From: a virus
Lineage: Duplodnaviria > Caudoviricetes
IMG/VR virus record: IMGVR_UViG_3300020045_002243
Span: 1-25,550 of that record
Length of the DNA stretch: 25,550 nt
Strand: one strand, 5' to 3'
This document shows positions 1,416 to 5,853 of the stretch, piece after piece; position 1 is the stretch's first letter, and every line of letters begins with the position of its first letter. The notes under the pieces are model-generated. The model saw only the letters and a program-made list of their open reading frames with translations. It was not told where the DNA came from and made no database searches. The position numbers and the translations under genes were made by a program.

Positions 1416-1640
1416 ATGACGCCAAAAGAAAAAGCAGAAGAATTATCAATTAAAATGTGTTCTCCACATGATGTATTTAAACCAAATTTAGCATCAAATA
1501 GAAAAGCATTAATAGCAGTTGATGAATTAATAGAAAGTACCTTTTCTAAAAAATGGTATGACAATAATGACATTATTACAGCTGATTATTTATTAACAGA
1601 ATATTGGGAAGAGGTAAAAAAAGAAATTAAAAAATTATAA
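1416..1640 (+). CDS. Hypothetical phage protein (74 aa, MTPKEKA type)
   Basis: ORF track; tight packing. Confidence 0.8.
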   Translation: MTPKEKAEELSIKMCSPHDVFKPNLASNRKALIAVDELIESTFSKKWYDNNDIITADYLLTEYWEEVKKEIKKL

Positions 1641-1643
1641 AAT

Positions 1644-2150
1644 ATGTCATGGAAAATATATAGTGCTCAAACAAGAGTGTTCAACGTGTTTAAGCGTTCA
1701 AAAGATAAAATATACAAGGAAGACGTAGAAGCGCTAAAACTATTGAACGAAGAGCTTTTAAATAGCCAAAAAAAGTATGTTAATGATAATATTCTATATG
1801 CTAAGTTACTTTGCTTTGTAATGTATAAAAATATTGAGCATTTTAAAGATATTAAAAAATGTATTCAACATATTCAAGAAAATGTTTTTAACGGAAGTTT
1901 ACAAGAACATATCGAAATTCTAAAACTTAACTTAAATAAAAATGATTTTGACGAATATTTAAATACATTAGGACTTTCTAAAAGTATAGAATTTACAGAT
2001 TCAGAAAAAGAAAGTGATTTAGCAATACTAACAAAAAACCAAAACGAGATAATTAATAAACTTAAAAAGTTTTGGAGTCACGAAAAAGTAAAGAAATCAT
2101 TTTACAACACAGCAAACGAATTTTTAAAAGATATTGATAATTATAAATAA
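1644..2150 (+). CDS. Hypothetical protein (168 aa)
   Basis: ORF track; its TAA stop (2148-2150) forms the AAC core at the cassette junction. Confidence 0.8.
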   Translation: MSWKIYSAQTRVFNVFKRSKDKIYKEDVEALKLLNEELLNSQKKYVNDNILYAKLLCFVMYKNIEHFKDIKKCIQHIQENVFNGSLQEHIEILKLNLNKNDFDEYLNTLGLSKSIEFTDSEKESDLAILTKNQNEIINKLKKFWSHEKVKKSFYNTANEFLKDIDNYK

Positions 2151-2288
2151 CGTTTCGTGGCTTTGTCGTCGTTATGGTGAATTGTCACAAATACCAAAAA
2201 AAATACATTAATCATTAAATTTAAAAAACTATGAATACAAATAAAGCTAAAGTGCCACAATGCGACAAAACCGCTGTTATAAGCCGTT
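2147..2288 (-). other. attC-like recombination site (Bacteroidota type)
   Basis: Minus strand reads ..GGCTTATAAC AGCGG TTTTGTCG CATTGTGG..(AT-rich loop)..CCATAACG A CGACAAAG CCACGAAAC GTTAT: AAC/GTT outer cores, paired inner arms, one extrahelical base; 134 bp between the outer ATAAC and GTTAT. Confidence 0.7.
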
Positions 2289-2452
2289 TATCTTCTGAAA
2301 ACGCATTGAACGCATTGAATGAATTATACGAAAATATGTCAAATCCAAATATAGTAGAACCGTTAAAGGAGTTATTAGAAAGACACGGTTATAAAGCTGG
2401 TTTTTGTGATGGTTTTCGGTCTGCTATTGAGTACGTTAAGAATGGCTTACAA
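2151..2452 (-). mobile_element. Solitary integron-like gene cassette (302 bp)
   Basis: AAC core at both ends (2149-2151, 2451-2453). GTTATAAGCCGTT (2276-2288) is complementary to AATGGCTTACAAC (2441-2453) at 11/13 positions, so circularisation would rebuild a fully extended attC. Confidence 0.65.
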
Positions 2453-2491
2453 CTAATTGCTAATAGCTATAAATGTATTATAATAACTTAA
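2231..2491 (+). CDS. Cassette-borne hypothetical protein (86 aa)
   Basis: ATG lies in the attC loop; N-terminal PQCDKTAVISR is encoded by the attC arm; the last ~13 codons lie beyond the cassette boundary. Confidence 0.7.
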   Translation: MNTNKAKVPQCDKTAVISRLSSENALNALNELYENMSNPNIVEPLKELLERHGYKAGFCDGFRSAIEYVKNGLQLIANSYKCIIIT

Positions 2492-2506
2492 AAACACTAA
2501 TAAAAA

Positions 2507-3388
2507 ATGAACTTTGATGAACTAGATAAAAATGCAAAACCAGAAGAAATTTTTAATTTTATTGACATACATAAAAAATCTATAATTGATTTAGAATTAG
2601 TTTATGACAGACCACCTTTAAGGATTTCAATTGGCAGAGACGATAAATCATATAAAGGCGTACATCATCCTTTGAGATTTGGAACAGCAGGAAATATATC
2701 AATGATTAAAGGCGAAGAAAAAGCACGTAAATCATTTTTGAAGTCTTTAATACTTGGATGTTCTTTTGGTGGTCGCTCTAATGTTTATACAAATTCAATT
2801 GATATCATAGGGCATGAATTGCAAGACAAATATGTAATTGATATTGATACAGAGCAAGACGACTTTGATTCATGGCAAAGTGCAATACGTATTCCAAACA
2901 TGGTTGGTGAAATTCCTAGCAATTATTTGCCTTTAAAACTTAGGGAACGTTCTCCTGCAGAAAGACTGCAGTATATTGAGTGGTTATTCATGGAAAGTGA
3001 GTATAGAAATAAATTAGGCATTGTTTCTATTGATGGATATGTAGATCTAATAAACGATTTTAATTCACTTACAGAAAGCAGTAATTTAACTCAAAAGTTA
3101 ATGAAATGGTCTAGTATTAGCAAATCACATATTACTGGAGTTTTACACTTAAATCCTGGTTCTGATAAAGCTAGAGGACATTTAGGAACGATATTACAAA
3201 ACAAATGCGAAACCGTTGTTATTATAGCTGATAAAGGAACTTATAAAGAAGGTACAGAAGATGTAGGATATTCACTTGTAACTTGTCAAAGAGGAAGAGG
3301 AAAGAAGTTTAAAGAATTTTGTATTAAAGTTAATGATGAATGGTTGCCACAAATAATAGACAACCCAGAGGGAGGAAGTTGGGTATAA
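2507..3388 (+). CDS. RecA-like AAA ATPase / replicative helicase-like protein (AAA_25 type)
   Basis: Walker A variant GEEKARKS, IDIDTEQ, IVSIDG Walker B, VLHLNP..ARGHLG. Confidence 0.8.
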   Translation: MNFDELDKNAKPEEIFNFIDIHKKSIIDLELVYDRPPLRISIGRDDKSYKGVHHPLRFGTAGNISMIKGEEKARKSFLKSLILGCSFGGRSNVYTNSIDIIGHELQDKYVIDIDTEQDDFDSWQSAIRIPNMVGEIPSNYLPLKLRERSPAERLQYIEWLFMESEYRNKLGIVSIDGYVDLINDFNSLTESSNLTQKLMKWSSISKSHITGVLHLNPGSDKARGHLGTILQNKCETVVIIADKGTYKEGTEDVGYSLVTCQRGRGKKFKEFCIKVNDEWLPQIIDNPEGGSWV

Positions 3389-3403
3389 TTAAAAACAAAA
3401 ATT

Positions 3404-3556
3404 ATGATAAAAGATACAGAAATACAAAGAGTAATAAATTGCAATATTGGTAAAAAATGCAATAATTGTAAAATTGGAAAATATAAGGGCATTAAATTAA
3501 TTGGATTAACATTTATTATTTGCGACAATTGTGGCAAAAACTTATTGAAAAAGTAA
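3404..3556 (+). CDS. Small zinc-ribbon protein (50 aa)
   Basis: Manual translation MIKDTEIQRVINCNIGKKCNNCK..ICDNCGKNLLKK; two CxxC pairs; fills the gap between neighbours. Confidence 0.7.
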   Translation: MIKDTEIQRVINCNIGKKCNNCKIGKYKGIKLIGLTFIICDNCGKNLLKK

Positions 3557-3558
3557 TT

Positions 3559-3885
3559 ATGGAACATAAATTACAAATAAAACCTTTAAGCGTAAACGAT
3601 GCTTTTAAAGGGCGAAGATTTAGAACTGATAAGTATAATTCATTTATAAAAAATTGTTTATTAATGTTGCCTAAAAATATATCAATACCAGATAAATCAT
3701 TTATTAAGTTAGCAATTCAATTTGGATTTAGTAGTAAGGCAAGCGATATTGATAACTGTTGCAAATCTTTTATAGATTGTTTAGTTAAAAAGTACGGTGT
3801 TGATGACAAACATATTTACGAGTTGCACGTGTTTAAATCAATTGTTAAAAAAGGTGAAGAATTTATAAAATTTAAAATATACTAA
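3559..3885 (+). CDS. rusA: RusA-like Holliday junction resolvase
   Basis: KPLSVN N-terminus and SDIDNCCKSFIDCL..GVDDKHI (DxDN..K...D....DD) catalytic motif; ATG 3559 preferred over the TTG at 3520. Confidence 0.85.
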   Translation: MEHKLQIKPLSVNDAFKGRRFRTDKYNSFIKNCLLMLPKNISIPDKSFIKLAIQFGFSSKASDIDNCCKSFIDCLVKKYGVDDKHIYELHVFKSIVKKGEEFIKFKIY

Positions 3886-3886
3886 T

Positions 3887-4057
3887 ATGACCCACTGTAA
3901 ACATTGCGTTAAAAAATGCAAGACATACCAAACCTGTAAAGATTACGAACCATATAGTATAGATGCATTAGAAAAAGAAAAACGCACCGCAAATCCAGAA
4001 CGATTAAAGGAAATAATAGCTAAGTTAGACTTTTATTATTATGGTCGTGTTATTTAG
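3887..4057 (+). CDS. Small Cys-rich hypothetical protein (56 aa)
   Basis: Manual translation MTHCKHCVKKCKTYQTCKDYEPY..DFYYYGRVI*. Confidence 0.65.
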   Translation: MTHCKHCVKKCKTYQTCKDYEPYSIDALEKEKRTANPERLKEIIAKLDFYYYGRVI

Positions 4058-4071
4058 AATGATTATAAATA
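4051..4071. promoter_or_regulatory. Palindromic operator, Fur-box-like (copy 1)
   Basis: TATTTAGAAT-G-ATTATAAATA, 9/10 inverted repeat; 17/19 identical to the reverse complement of 17242-17260. Confidence 0.55.
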
Positions 4072-4094
4072 CAAATATTTTATTGTAAAATGTA

Positions 4095-4124
4095 TTGTTT
4101 ATTCAAAATACAACCTTATATTTG
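4095..4124 (+). promoter_or_regulatory. Bacteroidota housekeeping-sigma promoter
   Basis: TTG (4095-4097) N19 TATATTTG (4117-4124) matches the -33/-7 consensus; intergenic, upstream of the accessory cluster. Confidence 0.75.
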
Positions 4125-4160
4125 TACTCAGATAACAACAACATTTAAAAAATAGGAATT

Positions 4161-4535
4161 ATGAAAATACAAATTAAAAGACAAGAAGAATTTATTGAAG
4201 CTAAATATGCAACAATAGAAATAAATGAAAATAAATATAGATTATCTGAAACTATTGATGGAAGGTTGAAAGTAAATAAAACTTCGTTAGATGGAATGGA
4301 TAACTACATTAGAACATATCCATCTAACAATAATGAGATAGATATTAAAAAATATCGAGGAATTGCTTTTTTACAATTCAAAATGACGCATCGTATTAAT
4401 CAAGTTTTTGAAAGAAGAAAACTTATTGCGAAAGAAATATTAGAAAATGTAATACATCCAAATCAAATGTTATATGCTCAGGAAGAAATTGAGCAATTAG
4501 ATGAAATTTTGAAAGATTTTCTTTTTATAGGCTAA
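4161..4535 (+). CDS. Hypothetical protein (124 aa)
   Basis: ORF track. Confidence 0.7.
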   Translation: MKIQIKRQEEFIEAKYATIEINENKYRLSETIDGRLKVNKTSLDGMDNYIRTYPSNNNEIDIKKYRGIAFLQFKMTHRINQVFERRKLIAKEILENVIHPNQMLYAQEEIEQLDEILKDFLFIG

Positions 4536-4586
4536 TTTTTTAAGGCATTACTGTTAACTGTAATTACAAATTAAAAATACAAAAAA

Positions 4587-4850
4587 ATGGAAACAACAAA
4601 GTGGAGCGAAGATTTATCTAAAATTAAAAATCACACAATTTTAAACATAGTTATAAAAGGTGATTTTTGTAATGTTATGAAAGCATTTTACAAAAACGAA
4701 TATTTCTATATTATTGATACAGTAGTTCAATATCATTGGAATAGCATATCTCATTACTACATTGAAAATGAGTTTTGCAAATGTGATCCAAATAGAGACT
4801 TAGATACATCTACTTATTTAGTATGTAAAAAATGTAATATGAAACTATAG
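4587..4850 (+). CDS. Hypothetical protein with C-terminal CxC..CxxC (87 aa)
   Basis: ORF track. Confidence 0.7.
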   Translation: METTKWSEDLSKIKNHTILNIVIKGDFCNVMKAFYKNEYFYIIDTVVQYHWNSISHYYIENEFCKCDPNRDLDTSTYLVCKKCNMKL

Positions 4851-4871
4851 GCATTTATTTTAGTATTTATG

Positions 4872-4902
4872 ATAACTAATTTATAATAGCTATAAATACA
4901 TT
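4872..4902 (-). other. Empty attI-like site (second copy of the cassette target)
   Basis: AACTAATTtaTAATAGCTATAAAT (4874-4897) versus AACTAATTgcTAATAGCTATAAAT (2451-2474): 22/24 identical; intergenic. Confidence 0.5.
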
Positions 4903-4929
4903 GCAATAACTTAAAATAAACAAATAACC

Positions 4930-5043
4930 ATGACAACAATTATCTTTTTAATCCCGTTTGTAATCTTGTATTTACTTCAAGATACAATAACTGAATTTTT
5001 ATGCAAAGGAAAGTCTTTTGCTCCTAATGAAACAAAATGGTAA
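4930..5043 (+). CDS. Small membrane protein (37 aa)
   Basis: Manual translation MTTIIFLIPFVILYLLQD..ETKW*. Confidence 0.55.
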   Translation: MTTIIFLIPFVILYLLQDTITEFLCKGKSFAPNETKW

Positions 5044-5046
5044 TCT

Positions 5047-5253
5047 ATGAAAATATACGAAACGCTATTTAAAGACTCAGGATTGACTCAGGTTGATATA
5101 AGCAAGGAATTAAGTATGACTCAACAAAACGTGTCTAAAAAAAAGCAAAACATGCCTGCAATTAAAGCCTTGAGTATTGCAATGCAAAAATTAAATATTA
5201 ATTCGATAGAAGCACAAGAAAGTGGACTATCTGTAAAAATTGAAAGGTTATGA
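5047..5253 (+). CDS. XRE/Cro-like helix-turn-helix regulator
   Basis: GLTQVDISKELSMTQQNVS HTH signature. Confidence 0.8.
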   Translation: MKIYETLFKDSGLTQVDISKELSMTQQNVSKKKQNMPAIKALSIAMQKLNINSIEAQESGLSVKIERL

Positions 5254-5324
5254 AACTTAAAACACAAATTATAATCGGAGTAGCAATAGGAATATATTTT
5301 TTAATTCAAATAATATTTAGATAA
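5250..5324 (+). CDS. Micro membrane peptide (24 aa)
   Basis: MKLKTQIIIGVAIGIYFLIQIIFR*; ATGA-coupled to the HTH gene. Confidence 0.5.
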   Translation: MKLKTQIIIGVAIGIYFLIQIIFR

Positions 5325-5325
5325 G

Positions 5326-5853
5326 ATGGAAAAATACGAAATTACAAAAGAGCAAATACTTGAACTAGAGAACGGGTTTACATTACCTAAATTAAAGCAA
5401 TGGTTTCCAGAGGCTTTTAAGGTTAAGTTAGAGATAGAAAAATGGTATAAATGGAAAAACGGAGAAGTATTATTTAATTACCAAGAAAATGGTAAAATAT
5501 ATGGTTTTTTATATGGTAAATGGCACGTAACAGATTATTGGACTTGGGAGGCTACAAAGAATATAATAGAAGCCACAGAAAAAGAAGTATTTGAAGCATT
5601 GAAAAATGAATCTGTAAAGAGGGGACTTATTGATGGAGCTATTATAAATACATTGCAAGACGATTTAAATGTTGACTCTTGGATAAACGAAAACCAAAAC
5701 AAAGTTGGTCAAGATATATCTTTTGAAAATGGAAATTTATATGCAAAAGGTTATGGTAAATATTGCATATTCAAAAACGGAACTTGGGCAACAATTATAG
5801 AAACAATTACAAAAGAAGAAGCTGAGAAACTTTTAAATAAAAAGATAGTATGA
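5326..5853 (+). CDS. Hypothetical phage protein (175 aa)
   Basis: ORF track. Confidence 0.8.
   Translation: MEKYEITKEQILELENGFTLPKLKQWFPEAFKVKLEIEKWYKWKNGEVLFNYQENGKIYGFLYGKWHVTDYWTWEATKNIIEATEKEVFEALKNESVKRGLIDGAIINTLQDDLNVDSWINENQNKVGQDISFENGNLYAKGYGKYCIFKNGTWATIIETITKEEAEKLLNKKIV

Follow-up and report, generated by a model that had tools for sequence, protein, structure and literature searches.

Positions 2151..2452 of the + strand of the virus record studied here very probably constitute a gene cassette, a 302-bp unit of hairpin plus cargo gene, that was likely put into an attI-like site at 2453 by an I2-less tyrosine recombinase of Bacteroidota. The limits of the unit are taken from the allele of a close relative (L048), from offset boxes, and from family-wide breakpoints. 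At the level of sequence, comparison establishes the ends of the unit, the offset boxes, the polarity, a covarying stem, a docking motif, the linkage to an enzyme, and the flipped orientation of genes in phages. The record, which was analysed whole and is called the window below, is 25,550 bases long and ~75% complete. Profile searches found a terminase, a RusA-like resolvase and genes of replication. Two observations make a flavobacterium, of the Flavobacteriaceae, the likely host: among GenBank phages only the Nonlabens phages P12024L and S match the putative capsid protein (37.5%), and the element is found again in 31 records of Flavobacterium phages.

The sequence-only reading that preceded this analysis described a 134-bp hairpin bounded by ATAAC and GTTAT, with inner arms TTTGTCG/CGACAAA. 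All of these are present, ATAAC at 2147-2151 and GTTAT at 2276-2280. The attC-like hairpin proper spans 2148..2279, the + strand being the presumed recombining (bottom) strand, and carries the marks of its family: G after AAC, T at -5, A at -11 and T at -19. Its A+T-rich loop (2200..2233, + strand) holds the start codon of the cargo ORF and likely the translation start region. A scan with the family motif found this site and no other in the window, and 0 sites across 20 shuffled windows. Folding of both strands as single-stranded DNA, proposed earlier as a check, did not set the hairpin apart from shuffled sequences (z +1.13 on the + strand, +0.68 on the - strand). The weak fold is due to the long A+T loop, and the full stem is the minimum-energy DNA fold on the + strand only. 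Since stability alone does not separate the hairpin from shuffled sequence, the argument depends on comparison.

An 18-base piece of the right arm occurs in 31 viral loci, 23 of which contain the whole element, with sharp limits at TAAC and GTTA, unrelated flanks, and varied downstream genes. The same piece gave 17 matches in genomes; 14 were not taken as elements, and the four of these that were inspected were all chance matches. The downstream gene is not invariant, as it might be behind a conserved RNA element, and Rfam yielded no match in window positions 1500-5500 at E up to 5 and none in 14 array loci at the gathering score. By this comparison of sequences the hairpin is real, is part of a larger system, and belongs to a widespread family of attC-like sites. 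The resemblance to attC noted earlier holds in that sense, although the site is not canonical: its crossover-side spacer is longer and its L'' box has no extrahelical base. The extrahelical base that had been noticed does exist, in the crossover-side arm, without being a constant of the family (74/303 sites). The site is solitary as an attC, the only one in the window, but an attI-like site after the ORF had gone unnamed. CALINs comprise at least two attC sites without an integrase, and here there is a single site.

The inner recombination box GTTATAAGCCGTT (2276..2288, + strand) is complementary at 11/13 positions to the far box AATGGCTTACAAC (2441..2453, + strand) at the other end of the ORF, as had been claimed; a C at 2450 breaks one pair. 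The 12 bases from GTTA pair at 10/12 with the far box vs. 6/12 with the hairpin's own partner. Among the whole viral elements, 20 of 23 have a downstream box that pairs at 10-11/12 and lies 146-634 bases away, compared with 8-9/12 for chance matches and only 4-9/12 for the hairpin's own partner. Beyond the downstream box there follows either the next hairpin or a terminal motif beginning AAC|TA. The cut at both ends of the cassette would fall at AA|C on the + strand, which is G|TT on the - strand. The split R box, offset complementarity and G|TT crossover of integrons are all found here.

Offset boxes do not give a direction, and alleles were therefore compared. L048 is 99% identical to the window over 2031-2151, continues with three different units, partly decayed, and joins the window's sequence again at 2445; it matches the window up to the left AAC and again from the right AAC, where indel boundaries had been predicted. 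L037 has a hairpin of the window's subfamily at the identical base of the junction but a different gene behind it, and downstream genes vary across the subfamily, so that different ORFs do occur behind one kind of site. In three cultured Lillamyviruses, blocks of 98-100% identity within the array have a TAAC at their start and stop shortly beyond a subsequent TAAC. Of 16 cassette-core pairs with at least 95% identity, eight have the same upstream and a different downstream hairpin, and none the reverse; four of these eight are from Lillamyviruses, and loci were counted without dereplication. Both hairpins are the same in four further pairs and different in the remaining four; most of the latter share a hairpin family on inspection, and the genuine exception is one chromosomal pair, in which a common core stands behind different hairpins. 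These alleles, blocks and core pairs identify the unit as 2151-2452, a hairpin travelling with the gene behind it, as first proposed.

The left flanking phage gene (168 aa, 1644..2150, + strand) has as its stop codon the TAA of the left core. The right flanking gene (293 aa, 2507..3388, + strand) lies directly behind it in 8 of 17 relatives of the 168-aa gene. Four of the 17 have a plain gene between the two, four have an element beginning exactly at the stop-codon TAAC, and one, whose sequence ends too early, is uninformative. The empty docking-site allele predicted for this junction was not found in any of the 17, and the eight with adjacent flanking genes also lack the docking site. A pattern search of viruses gave 11 candidates and no empty site (nine on contigs already among the relatives, two new with a plain gene), a further search gave 0 matches, and none of 76 metagenome matches lay beside a gene of the window. 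No empty-site joint was present in the contigs of one DNA sequencing run bearing the phage (share 0.05), and among the runs listed there was no RNA sequencing run bearing it. One phage gene family, recognised by eye from shared motifs, occurs in three settings (L042:1724-2095, L047:4506-4949, L037:4578-4958 and L049): at the junction it is found both as a plain gene and as a cassette, and in a Flavobacterium chromosome it forms the first cassette. It is possibly a trace of cassette genesis or decay.

The attI-like docking site that closes the array, together with the spacer to the next gene, lies at 2451..2506 (+ strand) and has the core AAC|TAATTGCTA. Arrays in L041, L043 and L048 close with the same terminal motif, and it was found by search in 26 viral loci, the majority of which have a matching box 5' of it. 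TA stands 8-9 bases after AAC in the window, in 29/29 distinct phage sites adjacent to integrase genes, and in 12/13 such chromosomal sites, the last read by eye. The window's motif departs from the integrase-adjacent sites at positions 5-7, and its short consensus, taken alone, is not above chance. As in integrons, one end of the array thus bears a conserved terminal site, AAC|TA, and its position suggests the role of an attI. With an attI-like site at 2453-2506, the locus is a docking site with one cassette. The docking site probably entered the junction together with an array by ordinary phage mosaicism. A second attI-like copy at 4870..4933 (+ strand), part of a 75-base repeat 72% identical to 2436-2510, was detected by the motif scan; no cassette was called upstream of it, and L048 has other sequence at that place. 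At 4546-4563, just 5' of an 87-aa ORF, the window has a near-palindrome around GTTAAC that may be a collapsed site. In L153-L178 the docking motif mostly runs into a small conserved ORF starting MK-YTKTKVIRISE or MKKVINTLEK, which is absent from the window.

The cargo ORF (2231..2491, + strand) encodes 86 aa, of which 15 codons come from the hairpin and four from the box. As had been observed, it is antisense to the site and starts inside the hairpin, with the ATG in the loop and in frame across the subfamily. It has four homologues at 68-88% identity, all of which end at the box codon, and L013, L026 and L031, which have the identical inner box, carry T at the position of C 2450. This C is likely a T-to-C change that removed the stop of the ORF, so the last 13 codons would stem from a lost stop codon and the original product likely had 73 aa. 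The N-termini of the four homologues differ, from which it follows that hairpin and gene have been re-paired over longer times. The ORF has two weak viral matches and no family in PHROGs, NCBIfam or Pfam (best Atlas score 0.77). Of 396 phage cassettes, 340 have their longest ORF on the bottom strand and 16 on the top strand, the strand being unclear in the other 40; in 152 of the 340 this ORF begins inside the hairpin. Chromosomal cassettes differ, with 58 of 74 on the top strand and six on the bottom strand. Integron genes lie on the top strand and are read from Pc at attI; the gene of the window's cassette lies on the bottom strand. Cultured Flavobacterium phages gain and lose neighbouring genes at these sites, including a DNA methyltransferase. 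One phage (L015) and an array in a Flavobacterium MAG (L054) have in common a 341-bp cassette core, 96.8% identical, behind the same hairpin subfamily.

The anatomy of the family was derived from 338 bodies defined by boxes alone, with structure unused in order to avoid circularity; 318 could be oriented. Pair counts were taken from this set rather than from the subfamily alignment, since the subfamily loci had been picked by exact arm match. The arms pair at 9/12 or more in 95% of the 318 sites vs. 4% when arms are swapped, and most stem positions show several pair types. A is found at -11 in 314/318 sites and T at -19 in 310/318, and the window site has every family-invariant mark. A 13-bp unbroken stem followed by a G.T pair at -19 is present in 223/303 sites, and the register offset is 2-4 in 301/303 vs. 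1 for aadA7 (hand count). The family does not share the central spacer of 5-6 bases per arm and the extrahelical bases near L'' of canonical attC sites (PMC5027507). In 406/480 sites the better-folding strand is the AAC-first strand with the long spacer, the presumed bottom strand, as is reported of attC bottom strands in integrons (PMC5027507). A covarying imperfect hairpin with a more stable bottom strand is therefore a property of the family, while the window copy alone is weak. A cassette caller set to require paired arms and an offset box of 9/9 returned 292 calls from 80 loci and 0 from shuffles of those loci; it misses the window site, an 8/9 box, because of the mismatch at 2450.

The absence of an integrase from the window, noted at the outset, was borne out by the lack of a PF00589 match in the record, and none was found in five relatives (two at least 90% complete), three Lillamyviruses, or P12002L. 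The enzyme would therefore have to act in trans. In Flavobacterium sp. W20, the window's hairpin subfamily leads a chromosomal cassette that ends at AAC|TA, 101 bases behind the gene of a 347-aa tyrosine recombinase. Matches to this recombinase at E 1e-45 or better, paralogues included, occur in 54/151 genomes of Flavobacteriales. Within the 1.5 kb examined, cassettes begin 37-130 bp behind the integrase gene in 13 of 31 Flavobacteriales loci, and box pairs lie upstream of the gene in 3/31. In 80 viral integrase loci, the array is upstream only in 57, downstream in two, on both sides in one and missing in 20; no cassette was called on the expected side in 18/31 bacterial and 20/80 viral loci. 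Most phage enzymes have ~266 aa, and their genes start 36-52 bases after the docking core. L072, L075, L082, L118 and other viral loci each have, in this order, an array, a docking site and, 36-52 bases further on, the gene of a ~266-aa recombinase, and are complete integron-like elements in phages. In a Chryseobacterium plasmid (L233), a recombinase (70% identical) and a docking-like site are followed by co-directional genes.

The search for an IntI-like recombinase that had been suggested led to an enzyme that is not an IntI (TIGR02249, 203.7 bits vs. a cut-off of 265). The IntI-specific insertion is absent from all linked recombinases: the two catalytic motifs are 58-59 residues apart in the bacterial and 52-59 in the viral enzymes vs. 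100 in IntI1, and the linked enzyme is 42 residues shorter than IntI4 in that region. An integrase tree with one IntI and one Xer, and no support values, was not used to draw ancestry.

The mechanism to which these observations point would run as follows. The cassette would exist as a 302-bp circle, the + strand of which folds so that its own two boxes pair. The recombinase, which would be supplied by the host or by a co-infecting phage, is predicted to use the folded hairpin + strand as its substrate for recombination, and would cut at AA|C and join the cassette to the docking site. The gene, being on the + strand, would be read by transcription of the phage replication genes, with the hairpin loop supplying its start; a promoter scan was at chance level (5 vs. 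4.7). More generally, cassettes of this family are likely moved by a simplified integron-type enzyme common to Bacteroidota and their phages.

The mobility of the window copy itself is less certain than its origin. It may be a fossil with the same history, inherited in a mosaic block and no longer moving, a reading that agrees with the preferred one on origin and has a substantial, though minority, chance of being correct. The copy looks slightly decayed, with the mismatch and read-through at 2450 and a weak fold; neither the record nor its five relatives encode a tyrosine recombinase; and the hairpins in L041 and L048 are degenerate. Yet every family-invariant position is kept in the window site, L048 bears different cassettes although it is 99% identical up to the core, and the integrase-free Lillamyviruses still differ by whole cassettes. 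Far less probable is the notion that the hairpins are linker repeats or mRNA translation-start modules, with genes swapped by homologous recombination and no site-specific enzyme. The stem does form as RNA too (-21.4 kcal/mol, z -1.22), start codons lie in the loop, and one subfamily precedes many genes. Homologous exchange, however, would leave unexplained the boxes complementary across a whole gene, the breakpoints at a 4-base core between unrelated hairpins, the opposite gene orientation in chromosomes, and the fixed spacing to one recombinase family; Rfam, too, has no match.

Two further alternatives retain a cassette and change how it is read. Under the canonical orientation the crossover would be the G|TT at 2276 on the + strand, the hairpin would belong to the upstream gene, and the ORF would have lost its own attC. 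Offset complementarity without a direction would permit this, and the differing N-termini of the four homologues and the one discordant core pair would fit it, but different hairpins follow the same upstream base, the core is linked to its upstream hairpin by eight pairs to none, and chromosomal arrays read with the same polarity have AAC|TA at the site on the integrase side. This orientation is largely refuted and scarcely credible. It is also rather improbable that the cassette recombines as double-stranded or cruciform DNA in an Xer-like two-step reaction instead of by IntI-type single-strand cleavage and replicative resolution. Such a route would suit a recombinase without the insertion tied to single-strand recognition (PMC7790495) and an L'' box without an extrahelical base, while covarying stems of free sequence and the strand bias in folding point to a folded single strand.

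If the preferred explanation of cassette insertion by an I2-less recombinase is correct, its implications extend beyond this phage. It is held that the I2 helix gave integron integrases their capacity for single-strand recombination (PMC7790495), and tyrosine recombinases lacking the region have been judged to fall outside the integron integrases (PMC4889954). This view of I2 becomes directly testable with an I2-less enzyme that is linked to covarying hairpins. Bacteroidetes have been reported to be nearly integron-free (PMC9024848). On balance, we favour the view that Bacteroidota and their phages have a second large cassette system, run by an I2-less tyrosine recombinase of 265-350 residues acting on folded single strands, with rAID-1 as its gut branch, and that phages use their own or the host's integrase, build cassettes backwards with the hairpin as translation start and N-terminus, and trade with host arrays. 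The system offers a site-specific route to phage mosaicism, of which the window cassette is a small, perhaps ageing example; in a sister genus, methyltransferase content has been linked to plating efficiency (PMC7077304).

With respect to known systems, integrons have in common with this family the G|TT core, offset boxes, an imperfect hairpin of ~60-130 bases with a better-folding bottom strand, a tyrosine recombinase beside the first cassette, and an attI-like site in which TA precedes the crossover G by 9 and 8 bases, an arrangement also seen in a Shewanella attI (PMC9892861). The differences are that the recombinase lacks the ~40-residue IntI insertion, the crossover-side spacer is 1-3 bases longer with no L'' extrahelical base, phage genes are antisense and often begin in the hairpin, and the chromosomal integrase is co-directional with its cassettes. 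Further background is provided by earlier work (Cury 2016; Neron 2022; Escudero 2020; Nilsson 2020). In the literature searched, mostly outside subscription papers, neither antisense cassettes nor the anatomy of these sites nor phage integrases lacking I2 are described.

Qi et al. (2023; PMC9892861) reported 17 phage CALINs, which resemble the present case in having attC-like sites in integrase-free virulent phages and methyltransferase cargo. The Polaribacter phage P12002L attC1 has the long spacer, A at -11 and gene-strand orientation; T is at -20, not -19, the strict scan does not call it, and it is not recombined by IntI1 (PMC9892861). That paper treats the phage sites as ordinary attC and puts the divergent P12002L pair down to mosaicism; the sections available describe no antisense rule, docking site or dedicated recombinase. 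In attC1 and attC2 lie the two matching boxes of a single methyltransferase gene, and the divergent directions of the two sites would be accounted for in this way. The family-motif scan found five further family sites in P12002L. The published attC2, recombined by IntI1 (PMC9892861), lies at the array end (L208, 29215 and 30046), by its position where a docking site would be expected.

The rAID-1 elements of Bacteroidales consist of XerD-like recombinases followed by co-directional genes with integron-like repeats (bioRxiv 10.1101/471110). In two clusters of this type (L246, L247) the recombinases are 44-46% identical to the Flavobacterium enzyme and have the same 59-residue spacing, and the immunity arrays have offset boxes as here (7/7 in L247, by eye). 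These two clusters differ in their A|TT core and in other stems without A at -11 and T at -19, so the window's repeat is not of the type present in them. Their cargo is immunity genes on the top strand, and the accessible text of the preprint presents no phage form or mechanism (10.1101/471110). Nor does the window, a phage sequence from which the recombinase is absent, have the rAID-1 arrangement, in which co-directional genes of a Bacteroidales genome follow a gene for an XerD-like recombinase. Taken together, the cassette appears to work like an integron cassette while standing outside the IntI integrons, close to rAID-1 and to the phage CALINs of Qi et al.
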